A DNA stretch of 64,000 nucleotides, taken from assembly GCA_963842525.1 (NCBI GenBank), contig CAWJGT010000003.1, forward strand, positions 1,248,001 to 1,312,000, written 5' to 3'. This document shows positions 54,118 to 63,173 of this stretch, piece by piece. The notes below the pieces were generated by a model, which was given only the letters and a program-made list of their open reading frames with translations, was not told where the DNA came from and did not search any database. The translations under genes were made by a program, and so were the position numbers. Position 1 is the stretch's first letter; each line of letters opens with the position of its first letter. Source of the DNA: an uncultured Holophagales bacterium (lineage in GTDB: Bacteria > Acidobacteriota > Thermoanaerobaculia > Multivoradales > UBA5704).

Positions 54118-55473
54118 TCACCGCGCCGGCGTCGCCCAGGGGAGGTGGCCGTTCCGGTACTCCAGGAGGAACTGGGCGTTCCGGGGGTACCAGGGGCTCA
54201 CGAAGTCCCGCGTCAGGACCAGGTCGCTCTGTCCGGTGGGGTAGTAGAAGGCGCCGATCGCCTGGATCCCCATGGCGACGACCAGGCCGGCCACGAACAC
54301 GAGCCGCAACAACAGACCCATCCGCGCCAGGACCGGGACCAGCATCCAGACGAAGACCGGCAGCAGGTCGATCAGGAAGCGGGGGCCATAGCCGTAGCCG
54401 CCCCGCCAGTCCGTCTTGCCGTAGAGGAACAGATGGCCGACCACGCCCAGGGTGAGGCAGAGCGTCAGCAGCCGGTCCCGCGGCAGGCCGGCGACGAAGG
54501 GGCGCGCCACCAGGAAGAGGAGGAAGGGGGAAAAGATCAGCAACCCCTTGCCGGGGCTCAACAGGAGCCCCAGGGCGCCCCAGAGCGGCGAATAGGAGAA
54601 GAACTGCCCCATGGGCGCCGTGAGGGGATAGTTCCCCAACGGGTGCGCCAGGTAGTGGAGGTTGTAGGCGAAGGCCAGGACGCCGATCACGGCGATGGGC
54701 GCCGCGAACCAGGCCAGGAGCCGTTTCTCGGGGACGGCCGCCGCCAGGTAGAGCGCAACGCAGGCCGCCAGCACCACGTCGGGAGGGCGGTTGGCGATGA
54801 ACAGCCCGCAGAGCACGCCTGCCACGGCCAGCCGCCGCGGCGTCCACGATCCTATTGATCCGGAGGGGCCTGTGACCGCCAGCAGGATCCCCACGAGCAG
54901 GAGTTGGGCCGGTCCGTGCTGCCAGAGCGCTTGGCTGCTGGTGGCCCACGTGTTGGTCCCGAAGGCATAGGCCAGCGTGAGGAGGGCCGCGTCGCGGGGT
55001 GGAGCGCGGCGGCGCAGGAGCAGATAGAAGAACGCCACCGAGAGGGCCGCCACCGTGGAGGCCGCGAGCTTCTCCATCAGGGCCGCGGTATAGATGAGCA
55101 ACCGCCTGTCCCAGCCGCTCCGCTCCATATAGATCACCGCAGGCGGGTAGAGAGGTGTCACCAGCAGCGGCGTGACAATGGGATAGCGCGACACGAGATG
55201 GCCGCCGATCTCCTCGGCCCAGTAGGGGTTCTTGAAGATCCAGATGACGTGCCACCGGAAGTCGTCCAGGGTCAGGCTGCCGGAATGCAGGAGGGCGAAC
55301 GGCAGGAAGCGGCTCGGGCGGGTGTCCCCCGTGGCAATGACCCGCAGGTTCGCGTTGTAGACGGCGAGCGCGAGCACGAAGAAGAGCGCGGCCTTCCTGC
55401 GGTCCGAACGAGGCGAGACCTCGGCAGGCCCGCCGGCGGAAGGCGGAGCAGCAGTCTCCGACATGGGCGGCAT
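54118..55473 (-). CDS. Polytopic membrane glycosyltransferase-like protein (GT-C)
   Basis: GDTRP, SQALWQHG, SPGKGLLIFSP, W.GG..YGPRFL. Confidence 0.65.
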   Translation of the reverse strand: MPPMSETAAPPSAGGPAEVSPRSDRRKAALFFVLALAVYNANLRVIATGDTRPSRFLPFALLHSGSLTLDDFRWHVIWIFKNPYWAEEIGGHLVSRYPIVTPLLVTPLYPPAVIYMERSGWDRRLLIYTAALMEKLAASTVAALSVAFFYLLLRRRAPPRDAALLTLAYAFGTNTWATSSQALWQHGPAQLLLVGILLAVTGPSGSIGSWTPRRLAVAGVLCGLFIANRPPDVVLAACVALYLAAAVPEKRLLAWFAAPIAVIGVLAFAYNLHYLAHPLGNYPLTAPMGQFFSYSPLWGALGLLLSPGKGLLIFSPFLLFLVARPFVAGLPRDRLLTLCLTLGVVGHLFLYGKTDWRGGYGYGPRFLIDLLPVFVWMLVPVLARMGLLLRLVFVAGLVVAMGIQAIGAFYYPTGQSDLVLTRDFVSPWYPRNAQFLLEYRNGHLPWATPAR

Positions 55474-55567
55474 GGGAAGCGAAGGCTATCACTCCGGAGC
55501 TTCCCGGATACGGCTCGATTCTTGCACATAGTGAAACATGGATTTTCGCTCGAAAGGAGGCTTCGAC

Positions 55568-56125
55568 ATGCATCAAAGAATCGAGTTGAACATCGTGCTC
55601 GGCCTCGTGCTCGTGGCCGTGCTGGGGATGGCGCAGCCCGCGCTGGCCCAGATCGGAGAGACGTGCGGTGGCATCGGTGGGCTCCGGTGTGCGGCGGGCC
55701 AGGCCTGCCAGTATCCGGAGAACCAGTGCAACACCGCTGACCTTGCCGGTGTCTGCGTGGCCGTGCCGGCGGATTGCCCGCGGCAGGGGCCGCCGGTCTG
55801 CGGCTGCGACGGCAAGACCTATGCGAACGAGTGCGAGCTGCTGAAGGCCGGCGTCCGGCCGCTGCGCAAGGGCGCTTGTGGCATGGAAGGGAAGGCCTGC
55901 AAGGCCGATACGGACTGCGAGGGTGCCAACGAATTCTGCGAATTCAAGGCCGGCACTTGCGGCGACCGGGGCGCCGGCAAGTGCACGGTCAAGCCGGAAA
56001 TCTGTACCCAGATCTTCCAGCCCGTGTGCGGTTGTGACAATCGCACCTACGGCAACGACTGCCAGCGGCAGGCGGCCGGCGTCTCGCTCAAGTCCGAGGG
56101 CGAGTGCCCTGGCGCGAAGAAGTAG
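55568..56125 (+). CDS. Secreted Kazal-domain protein
   Basis: Signal peptide; two PVCGCDxxTYxNxC motifs; CGGIGGLRC. Confidence 0.88.
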   Translation: MHQRIELNIVLGLVLVAVLGMAQPALAQIGETCGGIGGLRCAAGQACQYPENQCNTADLAGVCVAVPADCPRQGPPVCGCDGKTYANECELLKAGVRPLRKGACGMEGKACKADTDCEGANEFCEFKAGTCGDRGAGKCTVKPEICTQIFQPVCGCDNRTYGNDCQRQAAGVSLKSEGECPGAKK

Positions 56126-56966
56126 AAGCGGCCGGCTCCGCGAGGTCGCGCAGCAGCGATTCGTACTGGTCCAGCACACGGTCGATGTGGGTGAGCTCGC
56201 GGACCGCGCGCAGGCGTTCGAGCGCCGTGTGCCATTCGGGAGAGCCGAAGGAATCCCGCGCCCGTTCGATCGTGGCCTGGACCGACGCCGGCTCCGGCTC
56301 GCAGTAGTATGGATAGTCGGCACCCAGGAGCTCGACCGCTGTCTCGTCGCGGGTCGTGATCAGGGTCGCGTCGCACGCCGCGGCCGTCGAGACCTTGCAG
56401 TTGGGCTTGTAGAGGATCTCCCGGCCGGGGCGCCGGATCGAGAGATGGCAGTTGAAGCGGGATGCCGCGTCGAAGTATCCGTCCTCGACACACTCCACGC
56501 CATCGAGCCGGCCCCACAGATCGAACGACCGCTGCAGGCCGAGGTATCCGAGGGCCATCCGGTCGGCGGGAGCCTGGTTCGGAGCGTACCGCGGGTCCCA
56601 CTGGTGGTAGATCACCCGGTCCGGCCGGTTCCGCCGGCCGAAGTCGGCGAGCTGGCGCCTGTTCTTGAGGATCAGCGCGTCGAACAGCCAACAGTTCTTG
56701 ATCCGGCGTTTGAAGACGACGGTGTCCTGCACGTCGAGGACGAGCCGGTTGCCGCGCGCGCGGGCGAGCAGCAGGTGGTCGAGGCGGGAGGTCTTGATGA
56801 AGACCAGGATGCTGCGCTTCAGGGCGGGCAGCTCGCGGGCGCCGACTCCGCGGGCGTTCCAGCCACGGGCCGCGAGACCGCTGGCGATCTGGTCGGCCCC
56901 CATCACGGTCGACCCCTTCTCGTAATACTTGACGAAGGCGATCTGGACAGGCGGCGCCGGGCTCAT
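56088..56966 (-). CDS. Glycosyltransferase-like protein
   Basis: VLDVQD, LGYLG, YKPNCKVSTAAAC; translationally coupled to the GT14 gene. Confidence 0.55.
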   Translation of the reverse strand: MSPAPPVQIAFVKYYEKGSTVMGADQIASGLAARGWNARGVGARELPALKRSILVFIKTSRLDHLLLARARGNRLVLDVQDTVVFKRRIKNCWLFDALILKNRRQLADFGRRNRPDRVIYHQWDPRYAPNQAPADRMALGYLGLQRSFDLWGRLDGVECVEDGYFDAASRFNCHLSIRRPGREILYKPNCKVSTAAACDATLITTRDETAVELLGADYPYYCEPEPASVQATIERARDSFGSPEWHTALERLRAVRELTHIDRVLDQYESLLRDLAEPAASTSSRQGTRPRT

Positions 56967-57907
56967 GGCATCTCCTGCGGCTCGATGCCGAGCAGCTCGC
57001 GGTCGATGCGGTCGAGCACCTCGCGGTCGACTCCGAGGTCGATCTTGCGCGCGAAGTGATAGCGGCCGCTCGCCAGCAGAGGCAGGTCGGCCACGGTGAG
57101 GACGCGGGGCGAGCCGCGATGGGCCCGCGAGTAGTCGATGTAGCGAAAGTCGTCGTCGACCAGCTCGAACCGGCCGCTGTTGACGAGCACTGTCTGGACG
57201 AGCGACTCCTCGGGGGCGATCGTGCCGCGGTAGTGCTCCTCGACCTCAGGGTGCTCCGCCAGGAAGTCGCGCAGATAGAGGACGGCCCGGCGCCGCAGCG
57301 AAAAAAAGGCCCAGCCGCCGTAGCAGCGGAAGCCGTCGCCGAAAGGCACCCGAAGCCGGCGGACCCCGACGTAGGGGCCATAGTCGAGATAGAAGTGGAG
57401 CGGCGCGAGGCGGGTGACGAAGCGGACCGCGCGGAGCGCGCCCTCGGCCCCATCGCGGAGGCGCCGGTAGCGGTACCAGTAGCGGGCCTGCGCCTTGCGC
57501 CGCGGCCAAGGGCTCTCCGGCGACAGCACGTCCCAGTAGCGCAGGAATCCGTCGCACTGGGCGGCGTCGAGGAAGGCTTCGATCCGCGGGACCGGCGTCA
57601 CCGGATAGTCCTGGGCGGTGAGGTTGACGAGCCAGTCATAAGCGATGCCCTGGCGCTCCAGCCAGTCGATGGCATGGAGGTATGGTTGGACCTGGCAACA
57701 GAAGTGCGCGCGGATGCGCGGCCCCGAATCGGGCAGCAGGTAGGTGTCCGGCAGCCCGGCGAGCGGCGCCCAGTCGAGGGGGCAGCGGGCGGAGTCGTGC
57801 TGAACCACCACGATAGCGCGTGGGCTCCCGCGCCGCAGGGTCCGGACCAGCCGGTAGACCTGCTCCGGGTCGCGGTGGCTCTGGATGAAGTAGCAGACCG
57901 TGGTCAT
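56963..57907 (-). CDS. Core-2/I-branching beta-1,6-GlcNAc transferase family (GT14)
   Basis: YFIQSH, NLTAQDYP, PEES..QT, RYIDY, FARKID. Confidence 0.82.
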   Translation of the reverse strand: MTTVCYFIQSHRDPEQVYRLVRTLRRGSPRAIVVVQHDSARCPLDWAPLAGLPDTYLLPDSGPRIRAHFCCQVQPYLHAIDWLERQGIAYDWLVNLTAQDYPVTPVPRIEAFLDAAQCDGFLRYWDVLSPESPWPRRKAQARYWYRYRRLRDGAEGALRAVRFVTRLAPLHFYLDYGPYVGVRRLRVPFGDGFRCYGGWAFFSLRRRAVLYLRDFLAEHPEVEEHYRGTIAPEESLVQTVLVNSGRFELVDDDFRYIDYSRAHRGSPRVLTVADLPLLASGRYHFARKIDLGVDREVLDRIDRELLGIEPQEMP

Positions 57908-58007
57908 CGGCGCACACCGCGACCGCAGGCACGACCTCGCTGCCGCATCTCGGAACCCTCGTCGCCGTTCATCCGCCAAGATTCTATGCGATCACGAGAG
58001 CCCTACA

Positions 58008-59585
58008 TCACTTCATCCCAAGCTCGCGCATGCGACGGCGCAGCGCGCTGGCCGAAACTTCGAGCGCCGCCGCCATCGTCTCGATGTGACCGCCGTGCTC
58101 GGCAGCGGCGGCGGCGATCTCTTCGCGCCCCAGACCGGCGGCGGTGCGCAGATGGCGGCTCCTGGCGATCAGGTCGTAGATCGACGACCGCGGAATTCCC
58201 AGGCGCCGCGCCGCGGCCTGCGGGCGGAAACGCGCGGCGCGCATCGCCGCCACGAGCTCGACTTCGCTGATGTCGGCGGGTTTGCGTTCGCCCGCGGCCG
58301 GCTGCTGCAGCATATCGACAGCCGCCGCTGCGACCACCCGCGCGGGCGGCAATAACGCTTCGAGTCTCGGGTCGAGCATCGCGCGGTTTTCGCCCCGGTT
58401 GACGATCACCAACTGGCGCACCGCGCTGCGCAGCTCGCGGATGTTGCCCGGCCACGGCGCGAGGGCGAACCGCGCGACGATGGAGGCCGGCAGCCACTCC
58501 GTCCCGGCAGCGAGCCGGTGCGGCTCGCCGATGCGCTCCAGCTCCTCGCGCAGGAAGAGGACGAAGAGCCGTCCGACATCGTCACGGCGCGCGGCGAGCG
58601 GTGGCACGACGATCTCGAAGCCGCGCAGGCGGTGGAACAGGGGCGCGCGGAAACGGTGGTCGGCGACCGCGGCCTCGAGGTCGGCGTCGGTGGCGGCGAC
58701 GAGCCGCACGTCGACCCGCCGCGCCGCGCCCGTCCCGACCGGCTGGATCTCGCCGCTCTCCAGCGCGCGCAGGAGCAGCGGCTGGACGGCGTCGGGCGTC
58801 TCGCCGATCTCGTCGAGGAAGAGGGTGCCGCCGTGGGCCTCGGTGAACCATCCCGGCCGGCGACGGTCGGCCCCGGTGAAGGCGCCGCGCTCGGCGCCGA
58901 AGAGCTCGGCGGCGGCCAGCTCCGCGGGCACCGCCGCCATGTTCACCGCGACGAACGGACCGCCGCGGCGCGGGCTCGCCGCGTGCAGCGCCCGCGCCAC
59001 CAGCTCCTTGCCAGTGCCGGTCGCGCCGCGCACCAGGACTGCCACGTCGAGGTCGGCGGCGCGGGCCACGGCGCGGCGCACCGCCACCATGCCGGTGCTG
59101 TCGCCGATCATCCCCCAGCGGGGCAACCCAGGGTCGAGCTGCGGGTCGAGCCGGTGGAGCAGCAGGACGACGATGCCGCCGAACAGGAGGACGGCGCCGC
59201 CGGCGAGCCGCTCGGGCGGCACGACGCACCCGCCGCCGACCGGCTCGCCATCGATCGCGAGCGCCGTCGGGCTGTCACCGCGTGTGATCGCGATCCCGTC
59301 CGCCGCCATGCGGAGATGGATCGGCCGCCGGCTGAGCCGGGCGTCGTCGAGCGGCCGTGCCGTGCCGCCGGGCGCGGCGAACCGTGGCTCGAGCCGCGAG
59401 AGCGCTGCGTCTCGCCCCGCGTCGAGAGCGGCCAGCACGGCGCGCTCTCCGACCCGGTCAGTGTCCGGGTGCCAGAGCACGGTGAGCCCCCAGACGAAGA
59501 ACGCGGCACCCGAGCGGTCTCCGGCCTCCTCCGTGGTCGAATCGGCCTCGATAGTCGTCGCCTGTGCGGCCGGACGTGGGTCCAT
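58008..59585 (-). CDS. Sigma54 enhancer-binding protein with degenerate FHA-like N-terminus
   Basis: GATGTGKE, ELFG..GAFTGA, LFLDEIG, WPGNIREL, C-terminal HTH; N-terminal LSR..LDDARLSR and Thr-rich tail. Confidence 0.9.
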   Translation of the reverse strand: MDPRPAAQATTIEADSTTEEAGDRSGAAFFVWGLTVLWHPDTDRVGERAVLAALDAGRDAALSRLEPRFAAPGGTARPLDDARLSRRPIHLRMAADGIAITRGDSPTALAIDGEPVGGGCVVPPERLAGGAVLLFGGIVVLLLHRLDPQLDPGLPRWGMIGDSTGMVAVRRAVARAADLDVAVLVRGATGTGKELVARALHAASPRRGGPFVAVNMAAVPAELAAAELFGAERGAFTGADRRRPGWFTEAHGGTLFLDEIGETPDAVQPLLLRALESGEIQPVGTGAARRVDVRLVAATDADLEAAVADHRFRAPLFHRLRGFEIVVPPLAARRDDVGRLFVLFLREELERIGEPHRLAAGTEWLPASIVARFALAPWPGNIRELRSAVRQLVIVNRGENRAMLDPRLEALLPPARVVAAAAVDMLQQPAAGERKPADISEVELVAAMRAARFRPQAAARRLGIPRSSIYDLIARSRHLRTAAGLGREEIAAAAAEHGGHIETMAAALEVSASALRRRMRELGMK

Positions 59586-59619
59586 GGGGGAATCACTCTA
59601 CAAGCCTCTCATGGCGCTG

Positions 59620-59655
59620 TCGACATCCTTCGACGAGGCTCGACATCATTCGACG
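59620..59655. promoter_or_regulatory. Phased enhancer (UAS) candidate: four TCGAC boxes at 10-bp spacing
   Basis: TCGAC at 59620, 59630, 59640, 59650 (TCGACATCCTTCGACG and TCGACATCATTCGACG). Confidence 0.65.
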
Positions 59656-59720
59656 CCGCTTGATGCCGAACGGTCCTGTGTGCCCGGTGCCGGAGCTGGT
59701 GATCCGGAGGGTTCGGCGGA

Positions 59721-59736
59721 TGGCACGTCCGTTGCT
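59721..59736 (+). promoter_or_regulatory. Sigma54 -24/-12 promoter
   Basis: TGGCAC-GTCCG-TTGCT, exact consensus match, divergent from the enhancer-binding protein gene. Confidence 0.85.
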
Positions 59737-59813
59737 CCCTGGCTCTCCTATCTCAACTCGATTCCTCGCTGCCGGGATGAGCCCGCAACGTGACTTCAAA
59801 CAAGGAGAAGCCT

Positions 59814-60386
59814 ATGGCCACCTATTCGATCGACCTCGGCTTGGATGCGGATGCGCCGGGACAAAACAACGTCTTCCCATTGCAGATTGAGTTGTGCAGC
59901 GGAGAGCTGACACACAGCGGCAGTGGTCTCATCAATGGCTTTACACCGACAGCACTCGCATCGTTTGATGAGATCCTGTCTGGCGACACCATTGTTTTCC
60001 GTGTCTTCAACATCACGGGGATTGGTGGCAGCAGCATCAACAGCTTTACTGGGAATCCGGGAAGCATCACATTTTCTTTCACTGTGAACCCCAATTCGGT
60101 TGGCCAGCCATCGGTCCCGTTTTCGCAGATACCTGGCAATATCTCCAGTGCAGGCCCTCAGCCGTGCCTGAGCTTCGCCTCCGGGCCTAATACCTCCTGG
60201 CCCTGTTTTTACAAGCTGGAGAGCGGCAATAATCAGCTCATAACCCATCTGGTTAACCCGGTAACTTCGCCTACGTCATATCAGATGTCGCTCAGCCTAC
60301 AGATCGGGAGGAGTGACAGCATGACCCCTGTCACCTACTCCGTCGACCCGGAAATGGTGGTCGGCCCGGATCCCTCCGGCATGTGA
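59814..60386 (+). CDS. Low-GC beta-rich orphan protein ending YSVDPEMVVGPDPSGM
   Basis: RBS AAGGAGA; 190 aa; no signal peptide; downstream of the sigma54 promoter. Confidence 0.8.
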   Translation: MATYSIDLGLDADAPGQNNVFPLQIELCSGELTHSGSGLINGFTPTALASFDEILSGDTIVFRVFNITGIGGSSINSFTGNPGSITFSFTVNPNSVGQPSVPFSQIPGNISSAGPQPCLSFASGPNTSWPCFYKLESGNNQLITHLVNPVTSPTSYQMSLSLQIGRSDSMTPVTYSVDPEMVVGPDPSGM

Positions 60387-60397
60387 CGATCCCGCTC

Positions 60398-62698
60398 TCA
60401 GCGCGGGGTGGTGAGCGCCGCGAGCCGGTGGTAGGCCGGATCCGCTCGCAGCGACGCGAGCTCCGGCTCGCGTTCGACCTCGGTGATCGGCAGCCCGGCA
60501 CGGATCGCGTCCGCCAGCGCGGTCAGAGCCTCCTGCCGGTCGCCGAGGGCCTCGTGGGCAAGGATCAATCGATAGCGGCTCGCAAGGTCGATCGCGTTGG
60601 CGCTCATCCGCGCGATCTCCTTGCGCGCCGCTTCGCCGTCTCCGGCCTTTGCAAGGTAGAGTGCGAGCCGGCTGCGTTCGGTCTCATCGCTCGCGCTGCC
60701 GGCGAGCCTCTTCTGCACGAGCAGGGCGGCGCGGCGGAAGGCGAGCCGCGCATCGTCCTCATGGCCGGGGAGGAAACGGTAGCTGTCGCCGAGGTTGGCC
60801 CACAGGAGCGGGTTGTTGGTCGCCGTGCCCCCCTTTTCTCCTGCCACGGCAACGGCCCGTTCGTACGCGGCGTTCGCCTCGGCATAGCGTCCCTGGTAGA
60901 AGAGGATCGTGCCGAGGTTGGTGTAAAGAGTGGAATCCGGGTTGATTTCGATCGCGCGTTGGAGCTCGGCCGCGGCACCGGCATCGTCTCCGCGTGCCTG
61001 AAGGACCCCGGCAAGGTTGCGGTGGCCTGAGACGCCGTCCGGCTCCAGGGCGATGGCGCGGCGGAATTCCCTCTCCGCCTCGGGGTAGGATTTCTGTTTG
61101 AACAGCACGCTGCCGAGCGCGTTGTGGAGCTCGGCGTCGCTTTCGCGCCGGCGGACTGCCTCACGGAACGCGGCCACGGCTGCTGCGGTGTCGCCGCGGG
61201 CAAGGGCCACGGCGCCACGCCCGCGTGCGGCGTCGGCGTTCGCCGGATCAAGCACCTCGGCGCGCGCGAAGGCGGCGGTGGCGACGTCGAGGTCCCCCTG
61301 GTCGACGGCCGCCCATCCGAGGCTGACGTGAGCCGCCGCCAGGTAGTTGTCGACGGCGACCGCCTGCTGGGCCACGGCCCGTGCCTGGCGGAGAAGCTGC
61401 TCGTCCCTCCCGGTGTTCCGGCTCTGGCGCCAGTACGCACGGGACAGGCCGGCGAGCGCTGGCGCCGACCGCGGCTCGACCCGGAGAGCCCGCTGGAAGA
61501 GCCCGATGGCGGTGTCGATGTGGCCCGGCTTGTCCCAGCGGGCGAGCCGCGCCATGCCGGCCTGGTAGAGGGCGTAGGGATCGTCGTCCGCCGCCTCCAC
61601 CGAGAGCGGCGGCGTGGTGTCGCGGCCTCCCAGGACCCTGGTCTGCGTCACGATCACCGCCCCCATCCCGAGGATGGCGACCAGCGCCAGAGGTCCGATC
61701 CACCAGCGCCCGCGGCGGGCCGCCGCGACAGGCCCGGGCTCCCCGCCCAAGACCGCCGCCCACGACGGTGCCGGAGACCCGGCTCCATCCGGCGTTACGG
61801 GCAGCGAGACGATCGTCGGTACGTCCCGCGCTGCCGCTACGGCGCGGTGCTCCTCCGAGCCCAGATCGAAGGAGATCCCGCGCAACTGTTCGGCCACAGC
61901 GGCGGCGCTCTCCGGCCGCGCCTCCGGAAACTTGGCGAGCAGGGCGTCCACCAGAGCCGCAAGCTGCGGGGGAATGGCCCGATCGTGCGCCGTCACCGGG
62001 TCGTGCGGCCGGATCGCCAGCTTCGCGAGAGTATCGAGAGGGGTGTCGGCTGCGAAAGGCGATACGCCGGTGAGCAGCTCGTAGAGCAGCACGCCGAACG
62101 AGAAGAGATCGGCGCGGGGATCGAGATAATGGCCGCGCGCCTGCTCCGGCGCCATCGAACGCGGAGTGCCGAGGACGGCGCCGGTCGCCGAGACGGCGAA
62201 TTTTGGATCGTCCGCGGACATCGGCTTGGCAAGCCCGAAATCGGCGATTTTCAGGTGGCCCGACGCCGAGATCAGCACGTTCTCGGTCTTGAAGTCGCGG
62301 TGGATGATGCCCTTGCCGTGCGCCGCGGCAAGCCCCTCGGCGAGCTGCGCCGCCCACGCCACCGTGGTGGCAAGCGGCGGCCGGCCGTTCGCCTCCAAGT
62401 GCTCGCGCAGCGACGGGCCATCGACGAATTCCATGACGATCCAATCACCGTCCTCATCGCTGAGGATGTCGAAGACCGGGACGATCGCCGGGTGGGAGAG
62501 GCGCGCCGCGGCCCACGCTTCGCGGCGGAAGCGCGCGCGCTGCTCGGGGCTGGAGCGCTCCGGATGGGCGTGCTTGATCGCGACCAGCCGATCGAGGCGG
62601 CTGTCGTGGGCGAGGAACACCTCCCCCATGCCGCCCGCACCAAGCCGGCGGACGAGGCGGTATGGACCGATGACACGATCCGCTGCAGGGCTCGACAC
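60398..62698 (-). CDS. Membrane Ser/Thr kinase with C-terminal TPRs
   Basis: GTG after GGGAGG; LGAGGMGEV, HRDFKTEN, DFG, GTPRSMAPEQ, TM WWIGPLALVAILGMGAVIV, TPRs. Confidence 0.9.
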   Translation of the reverse strand: MSSPAADRVIGPYRLVRRLGAGGMGEVFLAHDSRLDRLVAIKHAHPERSSPEQRARFRREAWAAARLSHPAIVPVFDILSDEDGDWIVMEFVDGPSLREHLEANGRPPLATTVAWAAQLAEGLAAAHGKGIIHRDFKTENVLISASGHLKIADFGLAKPMSADDPKFAVSATGAVLGTPRSMAPEQARGHYLDPRADLFSFGVLLYELLTGVSPFAADTPLDTLAKLAIRPHDPVTAHDRAIPPQLAALVDALLAKFPEARPESAAAVAEQLRGISFDLGSEEHRAVAAARDVPTIVSLPVTPDGAGSPAPSWAAVLGGEPGPVAAARRGRWWIGPLALVAILGMGAVIVTQTRVLGGRDTTPPLSVEAADDDPYALYQAGMARLARWDKPGHIDTAIGLFQRALRVEPRSAPALAGLSRAYWRQSRNTGRDEQLLRQARAVAQQAVAVDNYLAAAHVSLGWAAVDQGDLDVATAAFARAEVLDPANADAARGRGAVALARGDTAAAVAAFREAVRRRESDAELHNALGSVLFKQKSYPEAEREFRRAIALEPDGVSGHRNLAGVLQARGDDAGAAAELQRAIEINPDSTLYTNLGTILFYQGRYAEANAAYERAVAVAGEKGGTATNNPLLWANLGDSYRFLPGHEDDARLAFRRAALLVQKRLAGSASDETERSRLALYLAKAGDGEAARKEIARMSANAIDLASRYRLILAHEALGDRQEALTALADAIRAGLPITEVEREPELASLRADPAYHRLAALTTPR

Positions 62699-62786: not shown

Positions 62787-63173
62787 TCATGAATTTCGTT
62801 CGTAGCCTCCGGCAAAGGCGGCGATCTGCGCGTGCAACCGCTTGGGGGCAACCACCCGGTACGCCTCGACCACCAGATCGGCGATCTCGTCCCAGTCAAC
62901 GGGCACGTCCAGATACACGCCGAGCCAGCCGCGGTGCCCCACGTAGGGCGGGACGAAAAAGCGTTCGGGATCTGTCCCGACAAGGGTCTCCTGCGCGCCG
63001 TCCGGCGCGGCGCATACGAAGGCCAGGCGGTCGTTGTGGTGATGGTCGGAGTACATGACGAACGTCTTCTTGCCGCGGATGAACCAGGTCGGCTCGCCGT
63101 GGCTGATCCGTTCGGTCGTCTCCGGCAAGGCAAGACAGAGCTTCCGTAGTCTCTCCAGCGGGTCCTGGGCCAT
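62787..63173 (-). CDS. MmcQ/YjbR family protein
   Basis: LCLALPETTE..SHGEP, FFVPPYVGHRGWLG, EAYRVVAPKRL. Confidence 0.88.
   Translation of the reverse strand: MAQDPLERLRKLCLALPETTERISHGEPTWFIRGKKTFVMYSDHHHNDRLAFVCAAPDGAQETLVGTDPERFFVPPYVGHRGWLGVYLDVPVDWDEIADLVVEAYRVVAPKRLHAQIAAFAGGYERNS

Follow-up and report, generated by a model that had tools for sequence, protein, structure and literature searches.

A kinase, an FHA-like sigma-54 activator and an Asp-Pro-tailed cargo recur as a cassette in one order of Acidobacteriota: a possible peptide-signalling loop

Near the end of the window, the 64-kb stretch of DNA analysed here, a small gene of deviating composition lies between a sigma-54 activator gene and a membrane kinase gene. 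Do the three belong to one system, and what does the small protein, hereafter the cargo, do in it? We found that all three belong to a cassette that recurs within one order of Acidobacteriota, of which the window carries one copy. Its genes are the following.

58008 to 59585, minus strand: sigma-54 enhancer-binding protein (EBP), 525 aa, with a Thr-containing N-tail, an FHA-like domain, an AAA+ domain and two HTH motifs
59814 to 60386, plus strand: variable cargo P0001, 190 aa, without signal peptide, with a PixA/MakCD/DP-EP-type beta-sandwich
60398 to 62698, minus strand: membrane-bound, Hanks-type Ser/Thr kinase of about 766 aa from a presumed GTG start at 62698, tail-to-tail with the cargo

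The activator subfamily is present in 74 of the 201 genomes of the order, with up to 20 copies per genome. A kinase was found at 58 of 80 foreign EBP loci (47 genomes); the other 22 have none within the examined stretch. At 46 of the 56 loci that show the 3' end of the kinase, a convergent gene has an Asp-Pro-hydrophobic ending, compared to 30 of 932 in the background, a count obtained with a search pattern devised when the tails were already known and in genomes that are kin. Both the conservation of the triad and the presence of DP-tailed genes at EBP-kinase loci, on which a first-pass annotation of this DNA made its reading depend, were borne out by these counts, whereas its description of the target as an orphan was not. 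Depending on the locus, the EBP gene is divergent or lies upstream of either the cargo or the kinase, and the tail-to-tail arrangement of cargo and kinase is kept despite these moves. Their stop codons are 11 bp apart in the window and overlap at many other loci. In multi-gene operons, it is nearly always the DP gene that adjoins the kinase 3' end, and in the window's own genome a DP partner adjoins only one of 56 kinases, the one with the best score. Locus L120 is a lead towards kinase and DP-tail pairs beyond the order. Each of the parts is already known by itself; no description of the cassette was found in listings of the literature outside subscription journals, and it may represent an undescribed peptide-signalling loop.

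The activator has the domains of a sigma-54 EBP, as first annotated: it matches PF00158 at residues 159-325 (E 1e-58, 198 bits; cut-off 20.2), retains an intact GAFTGA loop and carries two C-terminal HTH stretches, with an HTH_8 match of 43 bits.

58869 to 58886, minus strand: intact GAFTGA sigma-54 contact loop
59151 to 59495, minus strand: FHA-like domain, residues 31-145, with invariant R64, S85 and R86 and a profile match to 3gqs
59499 to 59585, minus strand: N-terminal tail, residues 1-29, with the acidic-Thr motif DSTT, a candidate phospho-acceptor

The phosphothreonine pocket of FHA domains has a conserved Arg and Ser, and the EBP has both, with R64, S85 and R86 invariant in all 86 EBPs. 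A profile of 62 EBP sequences had a single PDB match, 3gqs (E 0.0017), which we take to be an FHA domain; S85-R86 align with its SISRQH segment, and the FHA His and Asn are lost in this alignment. The Pfam FHA cut-off was not reached by the window EBP (no match), by any of 6 members or by any of 62 homologues, one of which gave E 0.038. The degenerate FHA domain first suspected here is a weak but supported call: the pocket residues and the PDB profile match speak for it, and it falls short of Pfam family membership. In the tail preceding it, [DES]T or [DE]xT occurs in 56 of 86 EBP homologues; only 19 of the 86 have it in the linker between AAA+ domain and HTH.

The intergenic region contains three elements preceding the cargo gene.

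59620 to 59659, plus strand: candidate enhancer (UAS), four TCGAC units with an exact period of 10 bp, situated 62-101 bp ahead of the -24 element
59721 to 59736, plus strand: sigma-54 -24/-12 promoter, exact consensus TGGCACG-N4-TTGCT
59802 to 59807, plus strand: ribosome-binding site AAGGAG

The divergent exact sigma-54 promoter reported earlier is the sole exact consensus in the window (0.01 expected) and one of four in the 9.95-Mb genome. Allowing at most two mismatches, a site precedes 45 of 51 cargos, compared to 28 of 300 random windows; one locus (L119) has the layout of the window yet no match to the pattern. Phased GAC pairs lie upstream in 35 of 45 cassette promoters (shuffles: mean 5.9, maximum 13), making the 10-bp-period repeat a candidate for a new, enhancer-like element. 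With a -24/-12 element and repeated upstream sites, the region resembles an EBP-type promoter, and the EBP very probably binds the phased GAC repeats through its two HTH motifs and activates transcription from it.

The kinase matches PF00069 (Pkinase; E 4.7e-50, 171 bits) and has all of the catalytic motifs VAIK, HRDFKTEN and DFG. A single hydrophobic segment separates the kinase domain from the TPR repeats, which agrees with the initial description of a convergent membrane kinase with TPRs and, given the predicted topology, with a receptor-type Hanks kinase that has an extracytoplasmic sensor.

60401 to 61594, minus strand: TPR solenoid, predicted to be extracytoplasmic, a candidate tail receptor
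61646 to 61702, minus strand: predicted single transmembrane helix (Kyte-Doolittle mean 2.13 over 19 residues)

The low-GC 190-aa target of the first-pass annotation was recovered as described, with a GC content of 0.55 (EBP, 0.75; kinase, 0.71), a GC3 of 0.67 (0.91 and 0.85) and the C-terminus VDPEMVVGPDPSGM. That the target is exchangeable, as the annotation suggested from this contrast, is supported; cargo bodies are hypervariable and range from 73 to 348 aa. Four cargos (L004, L039, L040 and L044) are peptides of 73-97 aa, with a hydrophobic leader and the motif but no room for the fold. A signal peptide is absent from P0001 and from every cargo except these four, which alone have the export leader of peptide quorum-sensing cassettes; N-terminal hydrophobicity is 0.93 in P0001 and 2.6-3.0 in the peptide cargos where measured.

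60339 to 60383, plus strand: conserved tail S176-V-D178-P179-E-M-V-V-G-P-D-P-S-G-M, with residues 180-184 forming the last strand of the model

The DP of this tail, whose conservation the first-pass annotation required, is invariant in 48 of 48 aligned cargos and in the 24 retrieved of 36 further matches; in two cargos, Glu replaces the Asp. The tail peptides of interest as candidate ligands are PEMVVGPDPSGM and DPEMVVGPDPSGM.

The P0001 model is confident (pLDDT 90.6), and in the fold comparison the PixA/MakCD/DP-EP beta-sandwiches rank above unrelated sandwiches, so that the proposed comparison with DP-EP and AidA/PixA did yield a shared fold. The model builds the tail into the sandwich as one of its strands, so that folding may be what conserves it. 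The suggested DP-EP relation stood for the fold, including an Asp-Pro before the last strand, and not for the family: P0001 has no match to Pfam DP-EP (PF08985) at E up to 1 (cut-off 25 bits). Matches below the cut-off were obtained for 8 of 46 foreign cargos and one cargo of the window's own genome, all of the DPT class, whose profile has SO1698 as its best PDB match (E 0.0019). The chain of wild-type SO1698 (3n55) stops at residue 116, where the model has come to residue 180, placing the Asp-Pro in register; S176, D178 and P179 correspond to S114, D116 and P117, mutants of which are uncut chains in the PDB. P0001 thus has equivalents of the S/D/P members of the catalytic set D37/S114/D116/P117, and residue-level alignments end short of D37. 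Neither P0001 nor any of the 46 foreign cargos matches PF12306 (PixA). A true PixA adjoining locus L046 does (130.6 bits), and it also ends in a DP motif.

Three tail classes pair with three kinase classes: kinases of about 750 aa with DPEM, those of mostly 840-910 aa with DPT and those of about 1085 aa with the secreted peptides. In a tree built from the extracytoplasmic part (51 rows), tail class needs 2 changes, the fewest possible, against 17 in shuffles. This co-variation can be plain co-inheritance: on the catalytic-domain tree a DPEM clade is not rejected (AU p 0.54), and pairwise tail identity tracks the extracytoplasmic part about as well as the catalytic one (0.27 vs 0.22 for DPT; 0.34 vs 0.40 for DPEM). 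Where tandem cargos lie beside one kinase (7 pairs, 5 loci), their bodies are 19-39% identical and their tails share 8-12 of 12 residues, including those beyond the last strand; between loci, mean tail identity is 0.43 and 25 of 408 pairs reach 0.67. Gene conversion could account for the tandem identity.

The reading that we prefer, at a probability of roughly 0.45, is a feedback loop of receptor kinase, FHA-like activator and tail ligand. A kinase that binds the Asp-Pro tail of the cargo through its predicted periplasmic TPR domain would phosphorylate the activator, which in turn likely drives the cargo gene from the sigma-54 promoter. Gene linkage and residue conservation point to the phosphorylation step, in which the kinase probably modifies a Thr of the N-tail, which would then dock on the FHA-like domain of the EBP itself, by analogy with DgcB. 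Tail-kinase co-variation and the secreted peptide-only cargos indirectly support feedback on the kinase, and the tail may be the TPR ligand and the specificity determinant of each cassette. Most cargos, including P0001, lack a signal peptide, and the sensor TPR lies beyond the predicted transmembrane helix. It is doubtful, though conceivable, that the tail of such cargos meets the sensor once cells lyse or by an unconventional route of export, possibly after a cut at the Asp-Pro bond, in which case it would be a positive-feedback alarm for damage to kin or for density.

The strongest alternative, a tenable but less probable one, is that the cargo is output only. The kinase would respond to some other cue, from the envelope or from outside, and would use the EBP to induce a cytoplasmic PixA/MakCD-like protein (an oligomer, inclusions, a stress or defence effector), with the DP strand structural and the tail classes inherited with the kinase. 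This leaves unexplained the secreted cargos that have the motif without the fold, the near-identity of tandem tails on divergent bodies, post-strand residues included, and the nearly constant place of the DP gene next to the 3' end of the kinase where an operon has several genes. The same tail-kinase co-variation would also suit a cargo that inhibits or modulates the kinase, a tail-bound negative feedback like that of an anti-receptor or immunity protein that turns the loop off, and the adjacent or overlapping stops would allow antisense interference from tail-to-tail transcription to add to it; this is improbable, as it shares the topology problem of the ligand model and the secreted versions look like signals rather than cytoplasmic inhibitors. 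The sign of the cargo's effect on the kinase is not readable from sequence. That the cargo is a true DP-EP-type autoprotease, with self-cleavage and self-assembly as its end function and the kinase unaffected, is very unlikely despite the register with 3n55, the three matching residues and the SO1698 profile match. Self-cleavage, put forward as a possibility in the first-pass annotation, gains no support: PixA and MakD have this fold in chains that continue through the last strand, and two cargos carry Glu at the position of the Asp.

The cassette offers a role for the PixA/MakCD/DP-EP fold that can be tested. Its copies amount to dozens of naturally matched sets, each with a receptor, a candidate ligand, an activator, an enhancer and a promoter, and are compact enough, at 4.7 kb, for reconstruction in E. 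coli. To our knowledge, very few of the receptor Ser/Thr kinases of bacteria have a known ligand, and there is little direct proof of kinase control of sigma-54 activators via FHA domains. Taken to its full extent, which we consider somewhat unlikely, the loop would be a new bacterial class of peptide signalling: a eukaryote-like receptor kinase would read an Asp-Pro-tail peptide via periplasmic TPRs and fire sigma-54 by way of an FHA activator that docks on itself. A cytoplasmic pro-protein of the PixA/DP-EP fold would keep the ligand as its last strand until Asp-Pro cleavage freed it on lysis, or, in one branch, the ligand would be a bare secreted peptide; the whole would be a kin-specific damage alarm, and the PixA/DP-EP fold would then function as a signal carrier.

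Each part has known counterparts. P0001 differs from PixA/AidA (PF12306; 4lzk, 4pib, 4q52) and Vibrio MakC/MakD (8rqy, 6tct) in its lack of a Pfam PixA match, 8-15% identity and long insertions (TM-scores 0.3-0.47, Z under 8), and the available portions of the published accounts link neither to a kinase or sigma-54. It resembles the DP-EP/DUF1888 protein SO1698 of Shewanella (PF08985; 3n55 and mutants) in fold, in the Asp-Pro before the last strand and in the Ser two residues before the Asp, and differs by falling below family thresholds; the enzymology of SO1698 is reportedly the subject of a 2012 paper by Osipiuk. In the accessible parts of the sources, members of this fold are described as poorly understood (PMC9060813, PMC11484084), and MakC and MakD as not secreted (PMC11484084). 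In Bdellovibrio DgcB, according to the text available, the N-terminal tail is the phospho-ligand of its own FHA domain and turns the attached enzyme on (PMC6733907). GarA/OdhI appear to work likewise; the output of these proteins is a GGDEF enzyme or a metabolic inhibitor, whereas that of the cassette would be a sigma-54 AAA+ activator. Myxococcus xanthus FHA-domain EBPs, said to have been described by Jelsbak in 2005 as encoded beside Ser/Thr kinases, share with the cassette an FHA-type domain on a sigma-54 activator adjoining a Hanks kinase; the cassette differs in that its FHA domain is divergent (His and Asn lost), its EBP has two HTH motifs, its kinase carries TPRs as well as a transmembrane helix, and its DP-tailed cargo keeps a fixed tail-to-tail position. 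Peptide quorum sensing in Bacillota (Agr/ComCDE, RRNPP) unites a variable peptide, its cognate receptor and a regulator in one cassette, and TPRs bind peptide. The likeness is in logic only, with no parts in common: the cassette has a Hanks kinase in place of a histidine kinase, a sigma-54 EBP in place of a response regulator, a diderm host and a candidate ligand that in most cases forms part of a folded protein of the cytoplasm.

The cassette is a real, conserved, multi-copy three-gene regulatory unit, apparently undescribed, as judged from literature-search results alone. All the features named in the first-pass annotation were found in the window sequence; a phased repeat at the same locus had been overlooked. 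The locus reads as follows:

58008-59585, minus strand, sigma-54 enhancer-binding protein (EBP), PF00158 at residues 159-325
59620-59659, four TCGAC units with an exact 10-bp period (the overlooked repeat)
59721-59736, exact sigma-54 -24/-12 consensus, directed at the P0001 ORF
59814-60386, P0001 ORF (the 190-aa cargo), downstream of the sigma-54 consensus

The EBP has an intact GAFTGA motif and two HTH stretches. No other exact match to the sigma-54 consensus occurs in the window, where 0.01 would be expected, and the whole 9.95-Mb genome has four. The P0001 gene has a GC content of 0.55, against 0.75 and 0.71 in the flanking genes, and its stop lies 11 bp from that of a Hanks kinase on the opposite strand, which carries TPR repeats and a single hydrophobic segment. 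The named homologues are members of Acidobacteriota. Two P0001 cysteines, C118 and C131 (window 60165-60206), are retained in the closest subfamily (C131 in 5/5); a disulfide between them is possible and would be odd in a cytoplasmic protein. The P0001 profile, at its residues 125-164, matches eight stretches of P0059 (926 aa; E 9e-10); the similarity may be compositional in origin.

The kinase gene is directly preceded by a same-strand YjbR/MmcQ-family gene (62787-63173, minus strand), not observed as a conserved cassette member. The minus strand at 54118-57979 carries glycosyltransferase-like genes, with a Core-2/I-branching match below the EBP; a 451-aa membrane protein encoded there has no Pfam match. 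A plus-strand gene (55538-56125) encodes a Cys-rich, probably secreted protein in which two Kazal-type domains are recognised (PF00050, E 1e-14), and a sigma-54-like site with two mismatches lies ahead of it, near 55511.

The source genome has six full-length EBP paralogues. Five, listed here by contig, have a kinase and a tail-to-tail gene ending in an Asp-Pro (DP) motif, and the sixth is without a kinase:

Window cassette, one of the five
C3:1907146, tail DPEMII
C25:461313, tail DPTIIY
C9:350962, tail DPTIVE
C21 (locus L004), 83-aa partner with a hydrophobic leader and DPPEIL, kinase frameshifted

The kinase of this last, peptide-type cassette is broken by frameshifts in this assembly (L004 2997-6298); its relatives at L039, L040 and L044 have intact kinases. 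Among the 56 kinases of the genome, a DP partner is confined to the best-scoring relatives, and an additional DP-pattern match on C13 looks like chance. Two further convergent kinase and DP-gene pairs adjoin other EBP types, one of GAF-domain type on C34 (L006 4059-8624) and another on C30 (51990-57200); thus, the kinase-cargo pair can recruit other activators. On C3 (1922172-1925325), a kinase is convergent with a 147-aa gene ending in DPRMNGG, with no EBP seen nearby within the stretch examined. On C11 (L007 8348-9981), a small leader-bearing peptide with DHHG/DPHG repeats at its end adjoins a larger regulator-like gene.

Of 201 genomes of the order, 74 gave matches to an EBP N-domain profile, with up to 20 matches per genome. 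In a phylum sample, under shallow scoring, 3 genomes of 301 matched, and all three belong to the order. We analysed 80 foreign loci from 47 genomes, chosen among 144 matches listed (154 more lay beyond), with long contigs preferred. The triad proposed earlier is conserved: a kinase is present in the stretch at 58 of these 80 EBP loci, and a convergent gene with the DP pattern, scored within the last 50 residues, at 46 of 56 kinase loci (two more run off the stretch edge), against a background of 30/932 ordinary ORFs, for a pattern drawn up after the tails were seen and among genomes that are kin. The ten loci not scored as carrying such a gene include three near-misses (L087, DPEMEV; L094, DPRMYV; L115, excluded by the distance filter); at the kinase end of the other seven there is none. 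The position of the EBP gene varies, and cargo and kinase are constantly tail-to-tail. Cargo operons of several genes, in which unrelated, unannotated genes precede the DP gene, occur at L005 (3382-4902), L087, L104, L108 and L082; the DP gene is kinase-adjacent every time.

The metagenome locus of a P0001 homologue (L119, 34%) has the layout of the window, despite which the promoter pattern found no match there. At L119 3400-3540, the N-terminal part of the kinase is replaced by another, opposite-strand reading, presumably amino-acid acetyltransferase-like; this is probably the end of a chimeric contig. In a Terriglobales MAG (L120 3370-6484), the gene after the closest named TPR kinase lies on the same strand, is unannotated and ends in DPTVKV with an acidic tail behind it; within 4.5 kb, EBPs of the cassette subfamily are absent.

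Upstream of 45 of 51 cargo units, with those of the source genome counted, lies a sigma-54 site carrying two mismatches or fewer; random windows gave such a site in 28 of 300 cases. Within the -125 to -35 region, 35 of the 45 sigma-54 cargo promoters have GAC pairs spaced by 10-12 bp, against 5.9 in shuffles. The EBP very likely regulates the cargo via sigma-54, and would act at this promoter to bring about cargo expression. At L046 (10579-11272, plus strand), a true PixA gene (130.6 bits) with its own sigma-54 site is divergent from the DPEM cargo of a cassette; the corresponding position at L045 and L048 is taken by other genes, likewise with a sigma-54 site. In a kinase-less branch of the EBP subfamily (L002, G000:C3:1724000-1737000; L058; L066; L067; L079), the gene beside the EBP encodes a large surface protein with DUF7507/DUF11 repeats and is accompanied by sigma-54-like sites.

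The FHA-like domain of the EBPs lacks the customary His and Asn, and a Pfam FHA search of 62 EBPs gave a match in one. Its only PDB match is 3gqs (E 0.0017), which we take to be an FHA domain; S85-R86 align with the SISRQH segment of that structure, and R64, S85 and R86 are identical in 86/86 EBP N-domains. N-tails with an acidic or Ser residue adjoining Thr number 56 of 86, against 19 in a control linker. In Bdellovibrio DgcB, the phosphorylated N-terminal region is reported to bind the protein's own FHA domain, leading to activation (PMC6733907). By analogy, a phosphorylated N-tail of the cassette EBP may dock on its own FHA-like domain. Control of the EBP by the kinase seems probable; 22 of 80 EBP loci have no kinase in the stretch, so for some EBPs the kinase may be encoded at another place, or the mechanism may differ.

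Cargos range from 73 to 348 aa, and their three tail classes pair with three kinase classes. Tail class requires two changes on the extracytoplasmic-part tree and four on each of the catalytic-part and EBP trees, against 17 in shuffles. The catalytic-part data are compatible with the same tail-class grouping (p 0.54) and the pairwise correlations give the sensor part no advantage; co-evolution and co-inheritance are, therefore, not separated. Tandem cargos at one kinase have a body identity of 19-39% and tails alike at 8-12/12 positions (7 pairs, 5 loci), compared with a mean tail sharing of 0.43 for similarly diverged cargos at different loci, where 25 of 408 pairs reach 0.67. Four cargos consist of a hydrophobic leader, a DP motif and a proline run, and nothing else.

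The best single mechanism, with a probability of about 0.45, is that the tail is a ligand of the kinase. Its main rival, an output-only cassette whose DP strand is structural, is a less favoured though serious contender. The tandem-tail identity and peptide-only cargos are harder to account for by folding alone. Several observations count against a ligand. P0001 and all cargos except the four peptides lack a leader, although predictions place the TPR domain beyond the inner membrane, PixA likewise carries a terminal DP, and Asp is replaced by Glu in two cargos. MakC and MakD are also reported to remain inside the cell (PMC11484084). The weakest step of the ligand mechanism is tail release through Asp-Pro cleavage, which we consider unlikely.

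Compared with known arrangements of a kinase and an FHA-type EBP, and with known peptide-receptor cassettes, the cassette falls among them as a variant; it would be categorically new if the ligand model were demonstrated.
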